Below the pieces are notes generated by a model that was not told the origin of the DNA, ran no database searches, and saw nothing but the letters and a program-made list of their open reading frames with translations. Made by a program: the position numbers and the translations under genes. A stretch of 62,328 bases of DNA, counting the filler, from Stramenopiles sp. TOSAG23-6 (Eukaryota): NCBI GenBank assembly GCA_900128565.1. It is 33 parts of 33 records of this genome, joined end to end, with 100 filler letters (N's around TTAATTAATTAA, not from the genome) between each part and the next. Parts side by side here need not be neighbours in the genome. Positions count along the whole stretch, not along the records: positions 11,440 to 13,241 come from LT638580.1; positions 13,342 to 15,143 come from LT638581.1; 31 more parts are not named here. The stretch is one strand, 5' to 3'. Positions 1,911 to 62,328 of this stretch are shown in pieces; the first letter of the stretch is position 1; every line of letters starts with the position of its first letter.

Positions 1911-1987
1911 ATTTATTTTTTTTTTATAGTAAATTTTGTACCTAACAAATTTTCAATTTTTTTTTGAAATATTTTTCCAAAATACAT

Positions 1988-2715
1988 GGGTTATTAGGAC
2001 ATCGATTTTGCCTTTTAACGCCAGAGTATCAAAAAGCGTTTGCTGAATGTTTTGTTCAACAATATGAAACTGTACATGTACGTTGTCAAATTTTTAAATT
2101 TCAAAAAAAAAAAAATTTCAAAAAAAAAAAAATTTCAATATTTTTTCGTAGATAATTTTGTACCTAATGAATTCATTTTTCTGAAAAAAAAAATATTTTT
2201 TACAATACATCGATTGGAAACGAATAAATTACGAAATGTTGCTAAATTTTTCGCACATTTACTTCATAATGATGGTATACCATGGACATCATTATCGTGT
2301 GTGTCCTTGACGATTGAAACAACAACGTGTTCGTTTTCATTATTTATTTCGATTTTTTTTTTCATAGGAAATTTTGTACCTAACAATTTTTTTTTTTTTT
2401 TTTTGAAATTTTTTTTTTTTTTGAAATTTTTTTTGTACCTAACAAAATAAATTTACATTGACATATTGTATCAAAATACAGCTGCTAGTCGTATTTTCAT
2501 TAAAATTCTATTCCAAGAAATTGTAGAATATTTGGGTTTGAATGAATTAAAAAGTCGTTTGTTCGACCCAACAATGGAAAAATATTTTGCAGGTTTGTTC
2601 CCGAAGGATAATCCAAAAAGTACNCGATTTTCTATTAATTTTTTCACTTCCATTGGTCTTGGCGCTCTAACTGATGAATTACGACGATATTTAAAAAATG
2701 CTCCGAAACGACTTT
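1988..2715 (+). CDS. CWC22: Pre-mRNA splicing factor CWC22, MA3 domain (partial; exons 1988-2077, 2211-2328, 2482-2715)
   Basis: Spliced product GLLGHRFC...[24 protein letters not shown]...[17 protein letters not shown]...[20 protein letters not shown] matches CWC22 signature. Confidence 0.95.
2078..2210 (+). mobile_element. Introner-like intron, GT...AT
   Basis: gtacat|GTACGTT...TACAATACAT|cga; removal restores TVH|RLET of CWC22. Confidence 0.9.
2329..2481 (+). mobile_element. Introner-like intron, GT...AG, two branch motifs
   Basis: acgt|GTTCGTTTT...AAAATACAG|ct gives TTTSASRIF (conserved TTSSSRIF). Confidence 0.85.
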
Positions 2716-3917
2716 GTATGTTTTTTTATACAATTATTACCTATTATCAGTTATCATCATGTTTTTTTTACAAAATGTAAATACTAACAAAAAAAAAAAA
2801 AAAAAAAAAAAAAATTTTTTTTTTTTTTTTTTTTTTTTTTGTTAGTATTTACATTTTGTAAAAAAAACATGATGATAACTGATAATAGGTAATAATTGTA
2901 TAAAAAAACATACAAAGTCGTTTCGGAGCATTTTTTAAATATCGTCGTAATTCATCAGTTAGAGCGCCAAGACCAATGGAAGTGAAAAAATTAATAGAAA
3001 ATCGNGTACTTTTTGGATTATCCTTCGGGAACAAACCTGCAAAATATTTTTCCATTGTTGGGTCGAACAAACGACTTTTTAATTCATTCAAACCCAAATA
3101 TTCTACAATTTCTTGGAATAGAATTTTAATGAAAATACGACTAGCAGCTGTATTTTGATACAATATGTCAATGTAAATTTATTTTGTTAGGTACAAAAAA
3201 AATTTCAAAAAAAAAAAAAATTTCAAAAAAAAAAAAAAAAAATTGTTAGGTACAAAATTTCCTATGAAAAAAAAAATCGAAATAAATAATGAAAACGAAC
3301 ACGTTGTTGTTTCAATCGTCAAGGACACACACGATAATGATGTCCATGGTATACCATCATTATGAAGTAAATGTGCGAAAAATTTAGCAACATTTCGTAA
3401 TTTATTCGTTTCCAATCGATGTATTGTAAAAAATATTTTTTTTTTCAGAAAAATGAATTCATTAGGTACAAAATTATCTACGAAAAAATATTGAAATTTT
3501 TTTTTTTTTGAAATTTTTTTTTTTTTGAAATTTAAAAATTTGACAACGTACATGTACAGTTTCATATTGTTGAACAAAACATTCAGCAAACGCTTTTTGA
3601 TACTCTGGCGTTAAAAGGCAAAATCGATGTCCTAATAACCCATGTATTTTGGAAAAATATTTCAAAAAAAAATTGAAAATTTGTTAGGTACAAAATTTAC
3701 TATAAAAAAAAAATAAATNNNNNNNNNNNNNNNNNNNNNNNNNNNNNNNNNNNNNNNNNNNNTTAATTAATTAANNNNNNNNNNNNNNNNNNNNNNNNNN
3801 NNNNNNNNNNNNNNNNNNAAAAAAAAAAAAAAAAAAAAAAAAAATTCATACCAAACACAAATGTAACAAAAATGTCCTAATTTTTTTTTTTTTTTTTAAT
3901 ATTTTCCAAAAAAACAT

Positions 3918-5243
3918 GTCGATACTCAATCAAAGCAATTATTAGATGTGAGTAAACAACAAAGAAAAACACTCCAAGAATATCAAAATGTTGTTAGAGA
4001 AAAGAAGAAATTAAATGAAAAACTTCAAAATGAAGAATCGATGAGTAAAGACTATAAGAAACAAATTTCATCCTCAAGAAAATTACTTGAAAACGAACAA
4101 CGTCAACGAAAAGCTGAAGTTGGAAAATTAATGCGTGCGATTGAAGAAGTATCTTTTTATTTATTTTTTTTAGAAAAAATTGAAATTTTTTTTTCGTACG
4201 AAATTTTGTACCTAACAAATTTTTTAAGATTTTTTTGAAATATTTTTCCAAAATACAGGTACGTGGGTCATTTAAAATATCTCAACGCCAAGCAGCAGAG
4301 CAGGTCGCGTCTTTTAGCAGACGCATTCAAAGGGGTAATGTTGATGCAAATAACTTGACTGAAAAAAATGATGCATTGCGTCAAGAAGTTCGTCGACAAC
4401 AGGCAGCTGCAGATGCTGCAATGTATGTTTTATTTTTTTTTTTTTTTTTTTGGTACAATTTTTTTTTTTGGTTCAGATTGAAAAATGTAATGTAAAATAT
4501 CTTGGTTTAGAGTCTCGCAGCCGTGCAGATGTAAAACGTTTAAATGAAAAAATTGAGTCTTTACAATCCAAATCTGCCATTTTTGATAAAAGAATGAGTG
4601 ATGCAAAAGCAATGACTACAACAGCTGAAAGTCAACTTCAAGATGCCTTATTTAAAATTAAAAATCTAACAGCTCGCTTGACAGATGTACAAAATGAGGC
4701 AAAGGCATCTGATAAAGCAATGTTTGCTGCAAAGAAAAAACAAGAAGAAGCAGAGAAAAAGGCCCGAGAAACGAAAAACCTTTCTGTATGTTAAATTTTT
4801 TTTAAACGTTTTTTTTTTTTTAGTTTTTTTTATTATTTGTTTTACATTTTTAAAAAACAAAAAAACAAAACTAAATTCTTTACAATGTTGTTTTAAAACT
4901 TTTTTTACAATAATAATATAATAATACCTAACAAAAACATGTACAACAATAATATTTCTTCACCAAACATCAGAAAATCAAAACTTTGACTGCTGCATTG
5001 ACAAATGAACAAGAAAAAGTGAGAGATAAAGAAATCCAATTAGTTACTCTAAGAGAGGAAGAATCAGATACTAAAAAAACATTACAACAAGAATTACGCC
5101 AAAAAGAAACATTACTTGCAACAACAACTGCAAAAGTCGCAGGATTAGAAGATCGAATAAGAGCTGTACAGGATGATGCCAAGCAGACGTGTAGTGGTAT
5201 GTATGTTTTATTTATTTTTATTTACCGGAAAAAAAAAATCGAA

Positions 5244-5275
<32 letters not shown>

Positions 5276-5514
5276 ACCTAAAAAATTTTTTTTTTTTTTT
5301 TTTGAAAATTTTGTACCTAACAAATTTTCTTTGATTTTTTTTGAAATATTTTTCCAAAATACATGGTATTAAAATTGAAAGCTGCTGAAGAACGTTTTCA
5401 ATTAGACGTTGAACGGTTGCGCGGTGATGCAGAAGCTCAACGTCAAAGATTAAGAGATAATAGAGAAGATGGTGATCGTGCAGTTGAACGTTTAGAGGCA
5501 CAGTTGGGTCACAT
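3918..5514 (+). CDS. Coiled-coil protein (partial, multi-exon; introns 4149-4258 GT-AG, 4423-4478 GT-AT, 4786-4970/4973, 5201-5364 GT-AT)
   Basis: Heptad-rich frames join in phase after removing the repeated introns. Confidence 0.75.
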
Positions 5515-9632: not shown

Positions 9633-9948
9633 GCAGTAATGCAACAATTACAGTCGACAATGGACCCACGTATGCTACAGCAGTTAGGTGGTGCGGGTAA
9701 TATGATGGAAATGATGAAGTCGATGGATATGTACGTTTTCAAAAAAAAAAATTTACCTACATTTTTTTTTTACCTACATTTTTTTTTGTACCAAATTCTG
9801 TACTTAACGATTTTTACCAAAAAACAATATTTTTTCACAAAACATGAGTGCATTAGGTGATATGATGAAAGGCGGTGGTAACCCACTCGAAGCTATGATG
9901 AAAGGTGCGGGTAGTCGTGGTGGTGGTCGTCGGAAAGGCAGACGCTGA
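9633..9948 (+). CDS. SRP54: Signal recognition particle 54 kDa protein, C-terminal end (intron 9731-9845 GT-AT)
   Basis: MQQLQSTMDPRMLQQLGGAGNMMEMMK Met/Gly-rich tail typical of eukaryotic SRP54. Confidence 0.75.
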
Positions 9949-11274: not shown

Positions 11275-11541
11275 GTATGTTTCATTTTTTTTTTTAACAA
11301 AAAAATCGAATTTATTTTTCGTACGAAATTTTGTACCTANNNNNNNNNNNNNNNNNNNNNNNNNNNNNNNNNNNNNNNNNNNNTTAATTAATTAANNNNN
11401 NNNNNNNNNNNNNNNNNNNNNNNNNNNNNNNNNNNNNNNTTTTATTTTTTTTTTTACAAAAAAATCGAATTTTTTTTTTATAGTAAATTTTGTACCTAAG
11501 GATTTTTAGTTTTTTTTTTTGAAATATTTTCCAAAATACAG

Positions 11542-13228
11542 TCTTTAGCAGATTGTGGCAATCAATATCTTCTCGCCCTAGGTATTAAAAAATCAGAAAA
11601 ATTACCCACTGGTGTTCACGTTTGTTTATAGTATTCATTTTTTGTATTTTTTGTATTTTTTTTATTTTTTCTATTTTTTCTATTTTTTGTATTTTTTTTA
11701 ATTAGGGTTAGGGTTTAATATCAAATACGAAAATTCCATTCCTACTGAAACAAAACCTAATGTTTTTTTTTTTAACTATAAAATATTGTTACACAATATA
11801 TCCATATGGTTATGCTAATGAAAGATACATTTTTGGTCTTATGTCAGGAGTTGGAATGTACGTTTTCATCATTTTTTTTTTTTTTTTTTAAATATTTTTT
11901 TTCGTACGAAATTTTGTACCTAACAATTTTTTTTAGATTTTTTTAGAATTTTTCAAACTACATCTTCTTCTTAGGTTGCGGGGTCACTTGTTACCATGGA
12001 CTCCATTTATTATTCAATCCACAACCTCTGGACAACCTTCCATTAGGAATAGGTATCATGGCAACTGCAGGAGCCATTGAAGGATACACTTTACACGTAT
12101 GTTGAATTTGTATTATTATTTTGAAAAAAAAATTGAAATTTTTTTTGAAATTTTTTTTTGAAATTTTTTTTTAGACGTCATTTAAAATAGCAAAAAAAAA
12201 AAAAAAACTAATTTTTTTTTTTTTTTGAAATACGTTTTCACAATATTTGTCGCCATTCAAGCCGTTCGTAATGCTGCAAGAGAAACAAGAATGACATTTG
12301 GAGATTATATTCGAAAAGGCCCAGATCCTGTACGTTTTTTTTTTTTTTTTTTACTTTTTTTTCAAATTCGAATTTTTTTTTTTCGTACGAAATTTTGTAC
12401 CTAACAATTTTTTTTTTTTTTTTACGGAAAAAAAAAATTTTGAAATATTTTTCTACAATACATGTATCNACGGCTGTATTATTAGAGGATGGAGCTGCTG
12501 TAACTGGCGTGTTTATTGCTGGATCTTGTATGGCAATGACCCACATAACTGGTAACTTACTATGGGATGCTGTAGGAACACTATTTGTTGGTGGTTTGCT
12601 AGGTGGTGTTGGTATAGTTATGGTACAAAAAAATAGAGAAATGTTGTTTGTGTTCATCATGCAATTCATTTAAAATTAAGTTTTTTTTTTTTTTTTTTTT
12701 TTTACCTAACAAAAAACAATTTTGATTTTTTTTTTTCACAATGTATGGTTGGTCGATCTGTAGACCCAAAGAGGTTGAAAGAATTAGAAGATATACTAGA
12801 AGAGGATAGTATGATTACTGCTGTTCATGATGTATGTTTTTTTTTTTTAATTTCCAAAACATTTTTTTTATAGTAAATTTCGTACCTAACAAGAAATTTT
12901 AGATTTTTTTTGAAATATTTTTCCAAAATACATGTAAAGGCAACAATCACAGGAGCCGACGATGTTAGATTTAAAGTAGAAATTCAGTTTAATGGTATTA
13001 ATTTGGCAAGAAAATATATTCGAGATCATGTTTGTTATTTTTACAAACCCTAACCCTAACCCTAGTGTAATTTTTTTTTGAACTTTTTTTTTTTTTGAAC
13101 TTTTTGTACCTAACACAAAAAAATCATATTTTATATTTTTTACAACACATCCTCGTGAAATTGCAAAAATGCCAAGTACAATAAACACGCAAGCAGATTT
13201 AGAAGTGTATCTACAAGTGTTTGGAGAT
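11542..13228 (+). CDS. SLC30A9: Cation diffusion facilitator ZnT9/SLC30A9-like (partial; 8 exons, 9 family introns)
   Basis: Spliced SLADCGNQYLLALG...HPYGY...SGVGIFFLG...DPVSTAVLLEDGAAV...LVGRS...VHDVKAT...RFKVEIQFNG is collinear with ZnT9/MTP7; introns 11620-11801, 11858-11963, 12097-12248, 12330-12463, 12646-12746, 12832-12933, 13030-13150. Confidence 0.92.
12330..12463 (+). mobile_element. Introner-like intron, GT...AT without upstream AT (register-diagnostic)
   Basis: gat cct|GTACGTT...AATACAT|gta keeps conserved DP; shifting to an xx...AC register gives DH. Confidence 0.88.
12832..12933 (+). mobile_element. Introner-like intron, GT...AT, near-consensus copy
   Basis: cat gat|GTATGTTTT...CCAAAATACAT|gta aag restores HD|VKAT. 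Confidence 0.9.
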
Positions 13229-13484
13229 GTATGTTTTTTTTNNNNNNNNNNNNNNNNNNNNNNNNNNNNNNNNNNNNNNNNNNNNTTAATTAATTAANNN
13301 NNNNNNNNNNNNNNNNNNNNNNNNNNNNNNNNNNNNNNNNNTGGGATGGGTGGTATTGGGATGGGTTTTTATTGGTATGTGATTTTATTAAGTTTTTCTT
13401 TAATAAAGTATAATGTATCATTAATATATTAGTAAGTAGTTGCCATTGCAGGCTATCAGAAGTTATTGCAAGCTTCTTCAAGCA

Positions 13485-14230
13485 ATGGGTGACCATAGAA
13501 GAGATGATTGCATGAAGGTTGTTGTATGGTTGTGTCCTTTTAATTCCCAAGAAAAACGCAACTGACATCAACAGATTGTCTCAATGAATCTTCCCATTAA
13601 TCATTGTGTTATTGATAATCCAGGAAAATGTGATAGTTCATCTAATGATATTCAACAAAAACTAGTCAACGGAGACAGTAAAAAGTTCACGTTTGATTGT
13701 GTCTTTGACATGAATGTCACACAAGAGGAAGCATACGAGGAAACTGGTTATAAGCTTGTAGAGAGTGTGATGCAAGGCTTTAATGGTACGATATTTGCGT
13801 ATGGACAAACATGGTGTGGGAAAACATTTTACAATGCAAGGCGTTGATGATTCACCTGAGCTTAGAGGTTTGATTCCTTGTGCATTTGACCACTTATTTG
13901 AAAACAATTGTGCATCAGTTACTACAGAATATTTAGTTCAAGCTTCGTACCTAGAAATATACAACAAGGAGGTCCGTGATTTGGTTGGAGTTGATTCTAA
14001 AAAAACACTTGAACTGAAGGAGCATCCAGAAAAAGGCGTTTACATTAAAGGCTTAAGCACACAAGTTGTAGAGAGTGTTGCAGCAATTGAAGATGTCATG
14101 CGCAAAGGTTTTGCTAAAGGAGCAGTCGGCTTGACAATGATGAATGCAGAATCATTGCACTCACATTCTATATTTACTATTGTAATTGAGTCAAACACAC
14201 CTGATGAACAAGGTAATTTTGTAGTACACC
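13485..14230 (+). pseudogene. Kinesin-2-like motor domain pseudogene (truncated)
   Basis: [25 protein letters not shown] motifs; in-frame TGA 13563, frameshift ~13830, damaged P-loop (GQTWCGK) and switch I (SLHSH). Confidence 0.85.
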
Positions 14231-17905: not shown

Positions 17906-18255
17906 TATATCCTTCGGTAGAAGGAATGATTCCAAAAGGTAAACCTTCCTATTTTATTTTATTATATATTATGCTCGTGTTGTTGTTGTTGTTGTTGGAG
18001 AGAAATCGAAAATAAAAGACGCGCGAAATCTCAAATTTTCGTACGTAAATTCTTATAGTAAACCATGAACCTCGTATCTACGCTAGGGTTAGGGTTTGAC
18101 GACACGTGCCGCTTTTTTTGTCTCGCACACACACACATGCAAATAGTGTTGTAACTTGTGAGAACGCGTACTNCCACTTGCTATAAAAATACGNAANTTG
18201 TATAAGGTCTGTGATTCATTNTAGTTTATTTTAGATTCAATTAAATAGTTTTCAA

Positions 18256-19100: not shown

Positions 19101-20773
19101 TTAGCTGCTACGAACACCTCCATTCCTTTCGGTATTGAAGAGATTCTTTTAAATGGTACAATGCGTATTGAATTCTACCGTTTTACATCTGCGTTGCCTC
19201 CATTTGAGGAACTATCTGTATCTTTCGTGGGTCTTCCTAGATTAGAATATTCTTTAAAAGCACTCTCAGATGTTTTCAATCCAGCCTCATGTATGTTTTA
19301 TTTTTTTTTGTATGAATTTTTTTTAGTACGAAATTTTGTACCTAACAAAAATTTAATTTTTTTTTGAAATATTTTTCCAAAATACATGGCCTGGCGTCAA
19401 GGGAAAGATTAGACAGGGAATCATAGACTCTCTTGAAACATTAATGGTATGGCCCAATCGCATTGCTACGCCTCTCGTAGAACAAGAATTGACGACGGAA
19501 AGAGACATCTTGGAGATTGCACTGCTAGATGCAGAAGTATTTAATCGTGGTAACAAGCCTAATATTTTTTGTAGGGTTCAATTTGGCGAAACAAATAAGA
19601 TCATAAACACTGAAAAACAAATGGAAGAAACGAGTGTAGTTTGGAATACAAACACACCCACTTGGAATACTGAAGTGTATCTACATATAAATCCAGCGCA
19701 GATAAAATCTTTGCCTACGATATCTGTATGGAGTTATAAACCAGATTCTTACATTGGCGAAGTAAATATGCGTTCATTAAATAAAATGGTTGAATGTGAA
19801 ATTTATGAAGATTGGCTTACGTTCCGAAACAAAAAAAATGGTGTGGAAGGTAGAATTCACGTAAAATCAAGATTAAAACAAAACGTTGATAATGATGAAA
19901 ATAATGAAATTTCTACACTCTCTACTGAAATTGGTATGAATATGAATAGCAAACATGCTAATGATAAAAGTGATGCTACTGGTGTATTAAAAGATAGCCT
20001 TAATGCATCAAATAAACATCCAGAAACACCTAGAAAAACTATAAAAAGTCAAACATCTAGTACCATAAATACTATTGAGGGGGTCGGGCTTGGACTGAAC
20101 CCTAACCCTAATGGAAATATTGATACACATATTTTCAACCCACACGGATCAGGGTCTTTAATACAACCACGTGGAAATCTACTCTCCTCTCGTGAACTCA
20201 AGATTACTAAAACGATGTACGTTTTTATCATTTTAAAAAAATCCAAAATTATTTTGTTTTACTATGAAAAAATTCTAAATATAATTTTTTTTCAAAAACA
20301 AAAATATTTTTTCACAATATATATTATCAGTATTTAAAAGTATTTTTTCTGGGTCTGATTTGGTAGAGTGGTTACTTAGAAGTGACTATTGTTCATCTAT
20401 GGCAGAAGCTGTAAATATTGGTAAAAAATTGATTAGTGTATATGCGTTATTACCAGCTCAAACTGAACATTTCCCAGGAAATTCTACATCTAGTTATATT
20501 GTACATGTATGTTTTATTTTTTTTTTAACAAAAAATTCGATTTTTTTTTTCGTACGAAATGTTGTACCTAACAAATTGAAATTTTTTTTTTGAAATATTT
20601 TTCCAAAATACATGTTCTTGTAAAAGTCCAATTAGAACTGACAAAACGAAAGGTAGATATTTTACCTGAGTTAAGATGTATTTTAGAGGGTATGAGTCGT
20701 CTTACCTTTGATGTAGATGTCGAAACATTTCGAAATTCCATGAAACAATCTTCACTGAAAAAACTTTTATCAT
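19101..20773 (+). CDS. SMP-C2-DEP domain protein (partial; GT-AT introns 19291-19387, 20217-20322, 20507-20613)
   Basis: SMP-like GTMRIEF...PPFEELSVSF...VWPNRI; C2-like TPTWNTE; DEP-like FSGSDLVEWL. Confidence 0.7.
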
Positions 20774-35122: not shown

Positions 35123-35266
35123 AAAATAAATAAATAAAAATGAAACATTTACTAATCATAAATTATTAAAAATCAAAGCATTAAGAGTAAACAGTGAAGA
35201 AAGAAACATTGAAGTTTCATACTTTTTTGCATTTGATCGTGCCCTTATTCTCTGAGGAGTTATCTC

Positions 35267-35288
35267 AGGGTTAGGGTTAGGGTTAGGG
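35267..35288 (+). repeat. (TTAGGG)n tract running into a gap
   Basis: AGGGTTAGGGTTAGGGTTAGGG then Ns. Confidence 0.9.
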
Positions 35289-35659
35289 NNNNNNNNACAT
35301 CCAAAGACAGTTCGATAGGCCAATGGTCCGAAACTGATTTAATTTGATTCCTTGAAAGCTGATATTCGGAACCAAAATCAAATGGCTGAACTCCAGTAAT
35401 TCATGTATAGTTAACAAATATGCAAAATTCATAATTTGTTTAATATAAAACCATTTTCAATGAAAAAAATTGACAAATTTGAAATTCCAAATTGAAATTG
35501 AAATCTGAATCGTTTTCAATGAAAAAAATCATTCGGTGAATCGTTTTCAATGAAAAAAAAATAAATTTGACAAATTTGAAATTGAAATGAATGCCCAACA
35601 CGCTATGTAGGCGGGTCAAAACATGTTAGTTAGGGTGAGGGTTAGGGTCGAAAACGGAC

Positions 35660-56682: not shown

Positions 56683-56917
56683 GTATGTTTTATTTTNNNN
56701 NNNNNNNNNNNNNNNNNNNNNNNNNNNNNNNNNNNNNNNNTTAATTAATTAANNNNNNNNNNNNNNNNNNNNNNNNNNNNNNNNNNNNNNNNNNNNTTTT
56801 TTTTTCGTACGAAATTTTTTCCCTAAACAAAAATTTTTTTTTTTTTTTTTTTTGTAAAAGTTTTTTTTTATCTAACGACTTTTTTCTTTTTTCAAAAATT
56901 TTATTTTTACAATACAT

Positions 56918-57806
56918 TTACTCTACCATGATAATAATCCTAAAAAAGCACTTGAACTCGCTGCTGCTGCAACTGAAGTCAATAAATATGCGTATGTTTT
57001 ATTTATTTTTTTTTTAACCGAAAAAAAAAAATCGACTTTTTTTTTTTCATACGAAATTTTGTACCTAACAATTTTTTTTTTTACGGAAAATTTTTTTTGA
57101 AATATTTTTTCAAAGTAAACAGATTGGTTTTGGAAACACCGACTAGGAAAATGTTATTATAGATTAGGTTTGTACAGAGATGCCGAGAAACAATTTATGA
57201 GCGCACAAAAACAACAAAATATGACAATAATTATATTAGATTTGGCCAAAGTTTGTATGTGTTTGTCATTCATAATTTTTTTTTTGGTTTCGTACGAAAT
57301 GTTGTACCTAACAATTTAAAAAAAAATTTTGAAATTTTTGAAATTTTTTTTTTGTACGAAATTTTGTACCTAACATTTTTTTTAAAAAAAATTTTGAAAT
57401 ATTTTCCAAAAATATATTTCTGAAAATGGACCAACCAAATTCTGCATTAAAAATATATACCGACTATTTAAACAAATATCCAGGAAATGTTTCAATTCTG
57501 CGTGCAAAAGCTCGAATTTTAGATATGTTGCAAAATACTGAACAATCAACAATTTTATACAAACAAATTCTACGCGTTGATGTTTGTTTCCATGATACAT
57601 TTCAAAAAAAAACAATTTCGTACGAAATTCTGTACCTAACAATTTTTTTTAGACTTTTTCTCCAATATTTTTTCACAATTTATGCTGCATGTATTGAATC
57701 TATTTCATGTCTTGCAACCAATCATTTTTATTCAGATCAACCTGAAGTTGCACTTTTTTACTATAGACGTTTGGTACAAATGAATGTGTACATTTTTTTT
57801 ATACCT

Positions 57807-57838
<32 letters not shown>

Positions 57839-58465
57839 CATACCTGCCCATTTATTTTGATGTTATATGTGTGTGATATATTTTTTACGCTACATATGAG
57901 TGCTATATGGAACAATATTGGACAAGTAGCCATTGGGATTGGTGACTTAGGCTTAGCGTACCAAACTTTTAAAATTTCTCTTTCTATTGACTCAAATAAT
58001 TGTGATGCGTATGTATGTTTTTTTATTTTCAAATACGATTTTTTTTTTTTTGGTTTCGTACGAAATTTTGTACCTAAAAAAAAATATTTTTTTTTATTTT
58101 CAAATACGAATTTTTTTTTTTTGGTTTCGTACGAAATGTTGTACCTAACAAACATTGATTTTTTTTTTGAAATATTTTTCCAAAATACATACAAATCTTG
58201 GTGTATTAGAACTTCGTAAAGGTCCGTTAACCCTAACCCTAATCATGATTTTTTTTTCAATTTTTTTTTTTTGGTAAAAATTTTTTGTACCTAACGATAT
58301 TTTTTTTTTAATTTTAATATTTCACAAAAAATAGGTAGTATAGCAAATGCGAGAGCCAATTTTGATACAGCTGTCCGGTTATCAAATAATCATTCCTTTG
58401 AAGCATCATTTAATGGTGCTTTAGTTGCGTATAAAATGGGTCGTTTTCAAAAAAGTTGGCAACTA
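56918..58465 (+). CDS. TTC8: BBSome subunit BBS8/TTC8 (partial, 7 visible exons)
   Basis: DWFWKHRLGKCYYRLGLYRDAEKQF, NHFYSDQPEVALFYYRRLVQM, VAIGIGD, AYTNLGVLELRKG; introns 56992-57120 AC, 57255-57417 AT, 57582-57683 AT, 58013-58190 AT, 58222-58334 AG. Confidence 0.95.
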
Positions 58466-58716
58466 GTGAGTCGATCATTATGAATTTTTTACCTAAATTT
58501 TTTTTTTTTGGTTTTTTTGTTTTTTTTGGTTTTTTATAAAAATTTTGTACCTAACAAATTTCGAATTTAATTTTNNNNNNNNNNNNNNNNNNNNNNNNNN
58601 NNNNNNNNNNNNNNNNNNTTAATTAATTAANNNNNNNNNNNNNNNNNNNNNNNNNNNNNNNNNNNNNNNNNNNNAAAATTTTTTTTTTTTTTTTTTAAAA
58701 TTTTTTAGGTAAAAAA

Positions 58717-58748
<32 letters not shown>

Positions 58749-58792
58749 TTCTATTTTTTTCGATTTTTTTGTAAAAAAAAAATAAAACATAC

Positions 58793-59947
58793 ATTTTTTG
58801 GCATTGCATTTAAATACGGATGAAAATAATTTTTTGTATCGTCTGAAAAAAATGTTAGATATAGTGCAAGTACTACAAAACTTGGCTCATTGGCACGTAA
58901 AATATATTTTTCATTATCCAATTCTTTTGATATTTTTTCTATTTTTGATAATTTTGATATTTTTTCCCCCAAATTTGATATTTTTGTTTTATCCAATGAT
59001 TCATTCATTGTACCATACACAGTAAAAAGAGCATCATATAAACGCAAACCCCAAGGATGTGTTGAAAAATATTTCATATGTAAATGTTCTTCATCAGCAG
59101 ATGATCTATAAGGATGTGGTCGTTTTGGTGGTGGCAATTTTTGCATATAATCAATCACAGTAGGTAAAGCTTTTGTTGTACGTAATAATAAATGAGGTGG
59201 TACTTTCACTAATGTAGTGGGATTTTGTATTCCATCAAGAGCAAATATCCCATGAATATCTGTTCCTGGAATTGTATTGATTTGTAAATGTGGGTGTAAA
59301 AAGCCCCCATTTGTTTTGAACCAAGACAAAAGGGTGTTATATTGAACTTCTTTAGCTTCTTCATTATTATTTAATGAATGAACGTCACTGGAAACAATCG
59401 ATTCCATGGCTTTTTTCATGATTACGTTATTTGAATTCATCGATTCCATGGCTTTTTTCATGATTACGTTATTTGAATTCATAGATGCATCATCATCATC
59501 ATTGATGATTTCTTTTGTATTTGGTTGTGTTGTTGTTTGTATGTTTATTTTGTTGTTTGTTTTGTTCTTTAGTGTTTCTTCTGACGGTATCAAATTTTGT
59601 ATAGTTTCAGACATGAGATTTCTATTCTTTTTTACGTCTTGTTCTCTCAATATAACTTGTAATTGCTCATTTGCTTTTCTGGCTTTTCTGGCGTTTCTTC
59701 GTCGTAAAGATTCTTTTATTCTTTCATCAAGAGCACTGTCACTTTTAGTTTTCTTTTCAACCATGTGAACTTTCGTACTCGACATATTCGTAGTTAAACG
59801 ATGACAAACGAAGAAAAAAACACAAACCACAAAGACAATATACATTGAACACTTTGAGTACTTTCTTATTGTCCCATTTGGCTTTTCAAGTTTACCATTG
59901 GACATCTTTCTTTTGAGTAAAGCATTCAAAGATTCATTTGAACGCAT
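58793..59947 (-). CDS. SET-domain-like protein, first exon
   Basis: LLSWFKTNGGFLHP, HGIFA, LVKVPPHLLL, YFHPYLNAMP. Confidence 0.7.
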
Positions 59948-60551
59948 GTTTAAAATACTTAACGTAATGCTTTTTGTAATATTATATACGTACGTACAGT
60001 CAGTCAGAGCGACACAATCACCTGATTATTTTGTATACAATATTCATACTTAATTAATGATGACGCGCCCCCCACTTAGCTAGTTCCTGAATGCTGTATT
60101 AGGTACAAAAATTTCATACAAATATTTCAACAAATTTAACATTTTTTACTTTATTTCGTGTTTCAAAAAACAATATAAATTAAGAAATTCACTACTACGA
60201 AGACAATTCGCAAAAACGGTGCCAATAAGCAGCTTTGTGCCGAGTTATTAGGTTCCTATGAAAAAACTATAGCAAACTTCAGCCGAAATATTTTTACATG
60301 AGACCTTGACTAAATGTCCCTCTAACGTAGTAGTTACGCACACATCTGCAAACCCTAACCCTAGTCCAACCAAAAAAACAAAAAAATCAAAAAAATCAAA
60401 AAAAACAAAAAAAACAAAAAAAACAAAAAAAACAAAAAAAACAAAAAAAACNNNNNNNNNNNNNNNNNNNNNNNNNNNNNNNNNNNNNNNNNNNNTTAAT
60501 TAATTAANNNNNNNNNNNNNNNNNNNNNNNNNNNNNNNNNNNNNNNNNNNN

Positions 60552-60593
60552 AAAATTTTTTTTTTTTTTTTTTAAAATTTTTTAGGTAAAAAA

Positions 60594-60625
<32 letters not shown>

Positions 60626-62328
60626 TTCTATTTTTTTCGATTTTTTTGTAAAAAAAAAATAAAACATACATTTTTTGGCATTGCATTTAAATACGGATGA
60701 AAATAATTTTTTGTATCGTCTGAAAAAAATGTTAGATATAGTGCAAGTACTACAAAACTTGGCTCATTGGCACGTAAAATATATTTTTCATTATCCAATT
60801 CTTTTGATATTTTTTCTATTTTTGATAATTTTGATATTTTTTCCCCCAAATTTGATATTTTTGTTTTATCCAATGATTCATTCATTGTACCATACACAGT
60901 AAAAAGAGCATCATATAAACGCAAACCCCAAGGATGTGTTGAAAAATATTTCATATGTAAATGTTCTTCATCAGCAGATGATCTATAAGGATGTGGTCGT
61001 TTTGGTGGTGGCAATTTTTGCATATAATCAATCACAGTAGGTAAAGCTTTTGTTGTACGTAATAATAAATGAGGTGGTACTTTCACTAATGTAGTGGGAT
61101 TTTGTATTCCATCAAGAGCAAATATCCCATGAATATCTGTTCCTGGAATTGTATTGATTTGTAAATGTGGGTGTAAAAAGCCCCCATTTGTTTTGAACCA
61201 AGACAAAAGGGTGTTATATTGAACTTCTTTAGCTTCTTCATTATTATTTAATGAATGAACGTCACTGGAAACAATCGATTCCATGGCTTTTTTCATGATT
61301 ACGTTATTTGAATTCATCGATTCCATGGCTTTTTTCATGATTACGTTATTTGAATTCATAGATGCATCATCATCATCATTGATGATTTCTTTTGTATTTG
61401 GTTGTGTTGTTGTTTGTATGTTTATTTTGTTGTTTGTTTTGTTCTTTAGTGTTTCTTCTGACGGTATCAAATTTTGTATAGTTTCAGACATGAGATTTCT
61501 ATTCTTTTTTACGTCTTGTTCTCTCAATATAACTTGTAATTGCTCATTTGCTTTTCTGGCTTTTCTGGCGTTTCTTCGTCGTAAAGATTCTTTTATTCTT
61601 TCATCAAGAGCACTGTCACTTTTAGTTTTCTTTTCAACCATGTGAACTTTCGTACTCGACATATTCGTAGTTAAACGATGACAAACGAAGAAAAAAACAC
61701 AAACCACAAAGACAATATACATTGAACACTTTGAGTACTTTCTTATTGTCCCATTTGGCTTTTCAAGTTTACCATTGGACATCTTTCTTTTGAGTAAAGC
61801 ATTCAAAGATTCATTTGAACGCATGTTTAAAATACTTAACGTAATGCTTTTTGTAATATTATATACGTACGTACAGTCAGTCAGAGCGACACAATCACCT
61901 GATTATTTTGTATACAATATTCATACTTAATTAATGATGACGCGCCCCCCACTTAGCTAGTTCCTGAATGCTGTATTAGGTACAAAAATTTCATACAAAT
62001 ATTTCAACAAATTTAACATTTTTTACTTTATTTCGTGTTTCAAAAAACAATATAAATTAAGAAATTCACTACTACGAAGACAATTCGCAAAAACGGTGCC
62101 AATAAGCAGCTTTGTGCCGAGTTATTAGGTTCCTATGAAAAAACTATAGCAAACTTCAGCCGAAATATTTTTACATGAGACCTTGACTAAATGTCCCTCT
62201 AACGTAGTAGTTACGCACACATCTGCAAACCCTAACCCTAGTCCAACCAAAAAAACAAAAAAATCAAAAAAATCAAAAAAAACAAAAAAAACAAAAAAAA
62301 CAAAAAAAACAAAAAAAACAAAAAAAAC
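60552..62328. repeat. Exact duplicate of contig 58675-60451 (redundant contig)
   Basis: Same 1777-nt length, identical ORFs at offset 1877. Confidence 0.93.

Follow-up and report, generated by a model that had tools for sequence, protein, structure and literature searches.

The AG at the end of an intron is among the most constant signals of eukaryotic genes and, besides introns of the U12 type, wholesale use of non-AG acceptors is to our knowledge found in few lineages: Fritillaria, Euglena, Amoebophrya and the diplonemids. Here we analyse a stretch of 62,328 nucleotides, filler included, from Stramenopiles sp. TOSAG23-6 (GenBank assembly GCA_900128565.1), referred to below as the window, in which a gene of the ZnT9/SLC30A9 type (contig 11440-13241, record LT638580.1) and other genes carry copies of a family of short, T-rich elements; comparison with homologous proteins suggests that these copies are removed as introns that begin with GT and end, in most cases, with AT. 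The window is made of 33 short contigs (1.78-1.81 kb, in falling order of length) separated by 32 linkers, each consisting of N runs on either side of TTAATTAATTAA, and its G+C content lies between 23 and 39%.

In Fritillaria, AT is reported as the acceptor in 34% of the introns of F. borealis and in 44% of those of F. pellucida, the last triplet being pyrimidine-A-pyrimidine and often repeated just before the donor, while the main classes start with AG (AG/AC and AG/AT) and GT/AG introns account for 5% (PMC13326754). A recent, lineage-specific and transposon-linked origin is described for these non-canonical introns (PMC11282704). The window family resembles them in having CAT or TAT at 32 of 37 intron ends and before 21 of 42 donors, and U12-type motifs are found in neither. 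It differs in that the donors are GT in all curated copies, in that the copies form one near-uniform family, and in that the host appears, from its ORC1 gene, to be a stramenopile and not an animal.

The second system for comparison is that of the introners, for which the published model holds that the element brings one splice site and that the other is common to the duplicated target (PMC11282704; PMC12130899). Splice sites that overlap the target duplication, and non-AG acceptors used with the U2 spliceosome, have likewise been reported (PMC11282704; PMC13326754). Like the introners of Micromonas, Aureococcus and others, the window family consists of short, non-autonomous elements inserted in exons, with many sense copies and a border repeat. 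Unlike the introners described so far, which have canonical or familiar ends, it has AT at the 3′ end and the duplication is missing in 7 of 29 copies; no autonomous partner element was seen in the window. According to the survey literature, large screens for introners dropped families with unfamiliar splice sites unless these were confirmed by transcripts (PMC12130899).

Two further systems share part of the outline. The U12-type AT-AC introns of Blastocystis have in common with our family the stramenopile context and, in most copies, an apparent AT..AC outline (PMC10639083), but the U12 donor and branch motifs are unmatched here (0/32) and three junctions rule out the register. For the non-conventional introns of Euglena, as for Amoebophrya introners, the descriptions give non-GT-AG ends, border repeats of 3-5 bases and short inverted repeats (PMC7789003; PMC11282704); the window family likewise has non-GT-AG ends, direct repeats at its borders and short inverted repeats at its ends, but it also has a conserved GTAYGT, a T tract and a CTAAC box, and pairing between its ends is weak or absent in most copies. 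In the literature on introners, non-canonical splicing and single-cell stramenopiles/MAST, covered at the level of titles and the opening lines of abstracts and including few subscription journals, we found no publication describing a GT..AT introner family, and in the accessible text of the single-cell stramenopile paper PMC5778133 "intron" occurs twice, and "splice" and "canonical" never. Introners and Fritillaria-type non-AG splicing are already known, and what would be new is the combination of GT donors with AT ends in a stramenopile family.

The gene on contig 11440-13241 allows the splice register to be read against a conserved protein. With the seven complete introns between 11620 and 13150 removed (Table 1; the intron at 12097 taken as ending at about 12246), the eight exons form a single open stretch of 263-264 residues. 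Used as a query, the 60-residue exon 12464-12643 yielded a 315-residue protein (P0002; JGI name zinc transporter 9) and a 154-residue fragment. Identity between the window fragment and P0002 is 66% across 263 aligned positions, and P0002 matches the Pfam family Cation_efflux (PF01545) with 91.4 bits, the exon alone scoring 18.4 bits, under the cut-off of 26.6. With P0002 as the query, a full HMMER search returned 433 proteins at E ≤1e-30, of which the best 150 were used; the ZnT9 column counts and the profile below refer to 151 homologues. The spliced fragment scores 383.6 bits against this profile, and the assignment of the host gene as a ZnT9/SLC30A9-type cation diffusion facilitator stands on sequence comparison. 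For exon 12464-12643, solved structures contained no ZnT9 relative, and metagenome contigs gave 10 relatives with identities of at most 54%, none of them a close spliced or unspliced copy.

Because most copies have an AT preceding the donor and another as the last two intron bases, the GT..AT and AT..AC registers are indistinguishable in them. This agrees with the original prediction, which had noted AT on both sides of most copies: AT precedes 31 of 42 donors and a repeat of at least AT is found in 22 of the 29 complete AT-ending copies, with AT before just 4 of 8 donors on the ZnT9 contig alone. Only copies that lack the upstream AT can be informative, and seven complete ones do. Three of these are synonymous in both registers (11620, His; 41116, Pro; 57255, Val), one (52210) lies in an unconserved region, and a further copy without upstream AT (52850) has no 3′ end, so that none of these five can serve as a register test. 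The remaining three complete copies are precisely those singled out in the original prediction.

The three decisive junctions, together with the end statistics, all bear out the GT..AT register that had been proposed over AT..AC, and the coordinates and junction sequences quoted in its favour are all present in the sequence as described. At 12330-12463, the conserved D-P is obtained only with GT..AT, the alternative being His in a column that holds P139 T6 A2 S2 M1 N1 among the 151 homologues and His in none. At 12646-12746, GT..AT reads M-L-V-G-R where the −2 register reads M-M-V-G-R, in a column of L146 I4 V1 with Met in 0/151, and at the ORC1 intron 46599-46409 it reads R-I-V-F and not R-N-V-F, the column being M42 V30 I26 L19 A2 Q1 in 120 homologues with Asn in 0/120. 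The closest ORC1 homologue, 72% identical over the neighbouring exon, has G-R-I-V-F at this position, and human ORC1 in solved structures has T-R-M-C-F. In the 151-homologue profile, the −2 register costs 5.5 bits at 12330 and 2.4 bits at 12646, or 7.9 bits overall.

A similar constraint comes from intron 11620-11801, with flanks ..CAC / CCA, where a gapless V-H-P-Y-G (columns H112, P130, Y135 and G145 of 151, with no gap) permits GT..AT, CG..TA or AC..AT alone; this intron is not AT..AC, because the upstream exon ends in AC and V-H-P-Y-G must be kept. The AT acceptor is thus backed by protein comparison at 11801, 12463, 12746 and 46409. At the start of the contig, S-L-A-D opens exon 11542 and the preceding exon lies outside the window, but His stands before this Ser in 142 of the 151 homologues. 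Since no His codon ends in AG, the AG at 11541 would be intronic, and an AG acceptor at this position, needed for the H-S-x-x-D motif, is a reasonable reading of the sequence. Protein comparison shows the mRNA register at the three junctions, and the curated copies the pattern of end conservation; at the junctions testable in this way, the AT..AC register is excluded.

The family behind these junctions is readily recognised. Its core, TTTGTACCTAA with at most one mismatch, has 62 matches in the window, where 2.6 are expected and the largest shuffle gave 6, and it is present on 16 of the 33 contigs. Copies are approximately 80% alike over some 100 bases, and many contigs end inside one. After the exon-side AT, the consensus runs GTATGTTTTA, T and A runs, TCGTACGAAATTTTGTACCTAACAA, T runs and GAAATATTTTTCCAAAATACAT, and the best-conserved core, TCGTACGAAATTTTGTACCTAAC, contains the CTAAC box. 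Within each contig the copies share a single strand, except on a palindromic contig (see below) and for one chance match with one mismatch. This strand is the coding strand in all three gene models built (ZnT9, ORC1 and HSP70), and removal of the copies restores the frames of all three without gaps relative to homologues (for HSP70 by eye).

The ends were curated by eye for 29 complete AT-ending, 3 complete AG-ending, 10 5′-only and 5 3′-only copies; mirror and duplicate copies, the 12097 intron, an undecidable 3′ end near 9633-9653, and the core matches at 47178, 57780, 58284, 58486/58544 and 60109/61986, which have no clear intron, were omitted. In this set, G at +1 and T at +2 are found in 42/42 donors, a count that is partly circular in that curation used the GT and YAT/YAG motifs, with A at +3 in 34, G at +5 in 36 and T at +6 in 40. 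On the exon side, A is found at −2 in 34 and T at −1 in 37 of the 42. AT makes up 9.8% of the dinucleotides in ZnT9 exons, which gives a binomial p of 7e-23 for its presence before 31 of 42 donors. At the 3′ end, the penultimate base is A in 37/37 introns, followed by T in 33 and G in 4 and preceded by C in 28, T in 8 and A in 1; the last triplets are CAT (24), TAT (8), CAG (4) and AAT (1), and CAT (13) and TAT (8) recur among the 42 triplets before donors. The dinucleotides of the AT..AC register are less constant, with an initial AT in 31/42 and a terminal AC in 27/37, versus GT in 42/42 and A[T/G] in 37/37.

Among the 29 AT-ending copies, the direct repeat shared by exon end and intron end spans 2 bases in 13, 3 bases in 5, 4 bases in 1, 5 bases in 3 and 0-1 base in 7. 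The terminal inverted repeat is just GTAT/ATAC, at most 4-6 bases, and the insertion sites have a weak palindromic preference (C at −3 in 16/42, G at +1 in 19/37). A CTRAY box is found in 31 of the 32 complete copies, a median of 43 bases from the intron end (range 20-115). The predicted junctions are open in 31/32 cases, which is uninformative as random joins are open in 82%.

Two statements of the original prediction were borne out in part. Contig 11440-13241 does hold nine introns, of which the first and the last are truncated at the contig ends, but they are not nine family introns in the strict sense: six have the family core, the stub at 13229-13241 is only 13 bases long, and the introns at 11620-11801 and 12097 are coreless, with end motifs in common with the family. 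GT was also said to be the only invariant end, which is true of all curated donors but is not borne out for the 12097 intron, since neither a GT..AT nor a GT..AG pair keeps the frame there.

Taken as a whole, we consider it quite probable that an introner family is removed here by the major spliceosome as GT..AT introns, in a gene of the ZnT9 type. The gene would have been colonised by a transposon-like, T-rich "introner" family of about 100 bases, present on at least 16 of the 33 contigs, whose copies may serve as U2-type spliceosomal introns with a strong GTAYGT donor, a CTAAC box resembling a branch site, and T runs. The U2 spliceosome would be the agent of removal and the CTAAC box the putative branch point, with an acceptor of the form YAT, less often YAG, a median of 43 bases past the box. 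The exon-side AT would then be retained in the mRNA and the AT at the 3′ end of the element removed, and the second step of splicing would have to tolerate U instead of G as the last base after a fixed A. The upstream AT may be a 2-base target duplication or may represent a target preference of the mobile element, much as in the introner model in which the donor comes with the element and the acceptor is common to element and duplicated target (PMC11282704).

Several points weigh against this reading, the partial circularity of the GT count among them. The chief result against a uniform rule is the 12097 intron, since GT(12097)..AT(12246) is out of frame and no GT..AT or GT..AG pair of the region is in frame, a point that the original prediction had overlooked. 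Exactly one residue stands between Y-T-L and V-A in 151/151 homologues, and the indel-free options that provide it are AC..AT at 12095-12246 (Leu, 383.6 bits), CA..TA at 12094-12245 (383.0 bits) and GT..TT at 12097-12248 (His, 382.6 bits), the longer options being GT..TA at 12097-12245 (one additional residue, 376.0 bits) and GT..AC at 12097-12233 (five additional residues, 372.2 bits). An assembly indel is a possible cause of the misfit. In the kinesin exon at 13780-13845, the P-loop G-Q-T-W-C-G-K-T-F is followed, after a shift of frame, by F-T-M-Q-G-V-D, the run of four T at 13827-13830 having one base too many, through either an assembly indel or a real frameshift. The assembly probably contains at least one homopolymer frameshift, and this affects the trust to be placed in single-base frame arguments in this assembly.

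The protein tests are also compatible with cuts close to those proposed. A shift of −1 (TG..CA) gives the same mRNA at 12330 and 12646, because upstream exon and intron end in the same base, and also gives Ile at ORC1; shifts of +1 to +3 give the same mRNA at 12330 and ORC1, because the downstream exon starts with GTA like the intron. The placement of the cut at GT would rest, beyond the protein tests, on the constancy of GT and of the GTAYGT motif. Additionally, an earlier YAT or YAG after the CTAAC box is passed over in 28 of 31 copies, the skipped sites typically being TAG 10-13 bases after the box and TAT approximately 15 bases before the true end. The upstream AT is found in 0/3 AG-ending versus 22/29 AT-ending copies (p = 0.024). 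The conserved Pro and Leu codons rule out an exon ending in AT before insertion at these sites, and because the Pro and Leu exons cannot have ended in AT, the 3′ AT there would belong to the element and the simple duplication model is weakened. Finally, no near-identical transcript or relative was found, the best match having 54% identity, and in a search of sequencing runs the marine metatranscriptomes reached 6-7% of the contig words, the level of many unrelated runs.

Four other explanations were considered. An AT..AC register, whether of the minor (U12-type) spliceosome or of U2-type AT-AC introns, would make the upstream AT intronic and keep the 3′ AT in the mRNA; it accounts for AT before 31/42 donors and for AC two bases before the end in 27/37, gives the same mRNA for most copies, and has a precedent in the stramenopile Blastocystis, where 196 of 253 minor introns are reported to be AT-AC (PMC10639083). 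It also predicts the His, Met and Asn that no homologue has (0/151, 0/151 and 0/120), and would give the discriminating copies the ends CT..AC, TT..GT and TC..AT. U12-type introns have the donor consensus [AG]TATCCTT at their first bases and branch sites about 10-26 bases from the end. Such a donor is found in 0/32 complete copies, whether as [AG]TATCCT in the GT register or as ATATCCT in the −2 register. The median distance between CTAAC box and intron end is 43 bases, and the U12-type version would further need U11/U12/U4atac/U6atac guide sequences that match ATGTATGT and this box; we give the AT..AC register next to no credence. More might be said for the idea that there is no single register and that cuts fall at variable positions near the motifs (TG..CA, AC..AT, GT..TT). 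The 12097 intron needs ends other than GT..AT, with AC..AT, CA..TA and GT..TT within 1 bit of each other, the shifts of −1 or +1 to +3 are compatible with the tested junctions, and very diverse ends are reported in Fritillaria and Amoebophrya. Even so, GT lies at the homologous position in every curated copy, the penultimate A is found in 37/37, and a uniform GT..AT/AG rule fits 32 of the 33 complete introns examined, the lone exception being one that an assembly indel could explain, and we regard variable cutting as improbable.

Removal guided by pairing of the ends, with exon AU plus GUAU facing AUACAU as proposed for Euglena and Amoebophrya, would draw on the complementarity of AUGUAU and AUACAU, on a stem probability that exceeds 0.7 in 7 of 28 copies, and on the self-complementary nature of AT, which could explain why an exon-end AT accompanies a 3′ AT and is found in 0/3 AG-ending copies. 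The mean pairing probability is nevertheless 0.32 versus 0.27 with shuffled interiors, and single copies do not exceed 0.01 in 7 of 28 cases, among them the discriminating 12646 and 46599, the value at 12330 being 0.22. The strong donor, the CTAAC motifs and the T tracts are unlike Euglena introns as these are described (PMC11282704), and in copies with GTACGT or GTTTGT donors the stem is disrupted and no compensatory substitution restores it, so that we find guidance by pairing very hard to credit. Ciliates eliminate short TA-bounded sequences from their DNA, and a comparable elimination at the DNA level, in which the elements would not be introns at all, would suit short AT-rich elements that lie densely in coding sequence and leave one copy of a repeated dinucleotide behind. 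Elimination of this kind would not require the single, coding-strand orientation seen on each contig; moreover the donor, the branch box and the T tract are intron signals, the repeated AT is missing in 7 of 29 copies, and ORC1 and ZnT9 place the host near the stramenopiles and not the ciliates. This explanation has, in our view, hardly any likelihood. The features of the ZnT9 contig and the ORC1 intron are collected in Table 1.

Table 1. Features of the ZnT9 contig, the discriminating ORC1 intron and the telomere-type repeats. Positions count along the window.
Feature	Position	Strand	Remarks
Family intron, 3′ part	11440..11541	+	core at 11489; end ..AAAATACAG = AG acceptor; donor off contig
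ZnT9 exon, S-L-A-D-C-G-N-Q ... G-V-H	11542..11619	+	homologue alignment
Intron GTTTGT..CACAATATAT	11620..11801	+	without family core; telomere-like repeat; exon before it ends AC
ZnT9 exon, P-Y-G-Y-A-N-E-R ... G-V-G-(I)	11802..11857	+	homologue alignment
Family intron	11858..11963	+	AT before donor and AT at end; register ambiguous
ZnT9 exon	11964..12096	+	3′ limit uncertain by ≤3 bases
Intron, GTATGT donor motif at 12097, family-like end ..CACAATAT at 12246	12097..12248	+	without core; ends ambiguous
ZnT9 exon, V-A-I-Q-A-V-R ... G-P-D-P	12249..12329	+	5′ limit uncertain by ≤3 bases
Family intron	12330..12463	+	CT upstream; discriminating: GT..AT = Pro, −2 register = His
ZnT9 exon, V-S-T-A-V-L-L-E-D ... 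K-N-R-E-M-(L)	12464..12645	+	homologue alignment
Family intron, end ..CACAATGTAT	12646..12746	+	TT upstream; discriminating: GT..AT = Leu, −2 register = Met
ZnT9 exon, (L)-V-G-R-S-V-D ... A-V-H-D	12747..12831	+	homologue alignment
Family intron	12832..12933	+	AT before donor and AT at end; ambiguous
ZnT9 exon, V-K-A-T-I-T-G ... I-R-D-H	12934..13029	+	homologue alignment
Family intron with telomere-like repeat	13030..13150	+	CAT before donor and CAT at end; ambiguous
ZnT9 exon, P-R-E-I-A-K ... Q-V-F-G-D	13151..13228	+	homologue alignment
Intron start, 13 bases (GTATGTTTT..)	13229..13241	+	AT upstream; cut by contig end
ORC1 intron, two family cores, end ..TACAATATAT	46409..46599	-	TC upstream; discriminating: GT..AT = Ile, −2 register = Asn
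Telomere-type repeats	11702-11713, 13048-13065, 18083-18094, 20100-20111, 35265-35288, 35630-35647		
Telomere-type repeats, continued	40096-40107, 40192-40203, 46707-46718, 58231-58242, 60353-60364 (duplicate 62230-62241)		

Family introns are also found in other genes of the window. The ORC1 fragment (45510-47292, minus strand) has three AG-ending introns, which finish at 47129, 46919 and 46663 and of which two show degenerate family features, AT-ending family introns at 46599-46409, 46316-46129 and 46074-45952, and a further donor at 45573. In the HSP70 fragment (41740-43524), the family introns at 42349-42465 and 42579-42678 both have AT upstream and are non-discriminating, and their removal restores, as judged by eye, the N-N-x-L-G-x-F and S-T-G stretches without gaps. 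A tetratricopeptide-repeat (TPR) gene at 56797-58574, whose product may resemble the ciliary protein BBS8/TTC8, has six or more introns of the family or similar to it within 1.8 kb. Copies with two cores each, in tandem or nested, occur at 46599-46409, 5201-5364, 57255-57417, 58013-58190 and 41347-41525, with lengths of 163-191 bases versus about 100. The copies that end in ..ACAG and not in ..ACAT are those at 2327-2481, 4149-4258 (whose donor is GTATCT), 56992-57122 and 11440-11541. Repeats of the telomere type (CCCTAA/TTAGGG, 2-3 units) number 16 in the window versus 0.09 expected; several lie inside introns of the ZnT9, ORC1 and TPR genes, and such repeats may be a second kind of intron filler.

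The assembly itself has some peculiarities. Contig 1911-3718 is a perfect palindrome, identical to its own reverse complement at 1808/1808 positions, as is typical of an amplification chimera, and its family copies were entered once in the counts; contigs 58675-60451 and 60552-62328 are identical at 1777/1777 positions and constitute a duplicated record. The palindrome, the duplicate contigs and the fact that three very small DNA runs contain the ZnT9 contig all fit an amplified, fragmentary assembly. At gathering scores, Rfam gave nothing in the 62 kb window, and in the protein atlas the kinesin exon was matched by the label "kinesin" alone, with no useful taxon.

The identity of the host was approached through the two conserved genes. 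The nearest named ZnT9 protein is that of the stramenopile Platysulcus, 45% identical to the window fragment, and among named ORC1 proteins the identities are 56% for Hondaea, 55% for Cafeteria and 43-49% for animals. In a FastTree phylogeny of ORC1 (156 positions; 28 of the 120 homologues, namely the named ones and the closest unnamed), the window sequence falls with Cafeteria, Hondaea and unnamed marine sequences and is separated from animals, fungi and green plants. The host is probably a heterotrophic stramenopile, the sequence signal being weak but consistent, and an origin of the window from Fritillaria, also considered, is rejected on these ZnT9 and ORC1 relationships.

A broader interpretation is attractive, although we stop a little short of adopting it: the major spliceosome of a marine heterotrophic stramenopile would routinely use an AU end, independently of Fritillaria, and a burst of one mobile element, which supplies GT and either ends in AT or duplicates it, would have filled its genes with GT..AT introns, possibly the commonest class, with the exon-end AU, seen together with a 3′ AU but not with a 3′ AG, marking either the chemistry of integration or a new pairing between exon and acceptor in the second step. 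If the finding is true, it would add a second, unrelated lineage, in which one young GT..AT family provides a natural experiment on the range of 3′ specificity of the U2 spliceosome, and would allow a test for recurring changes such as the duplication of U2AF reported for Fritillaria. It would also mean that a transposon can turn into a tolerated intron without bringing or finding an AG. There are practical consequences as well: introner surveys that drop unfamiliar splice sites, as described in PMC12130899, would miss the window family, and gene finders that demand AG would break nearly every gene that bears it, with nine introns in 1.8 kb in the present case. The gene sets and completeness estimates of such single-cell and metagenome assemblies would come out too low.

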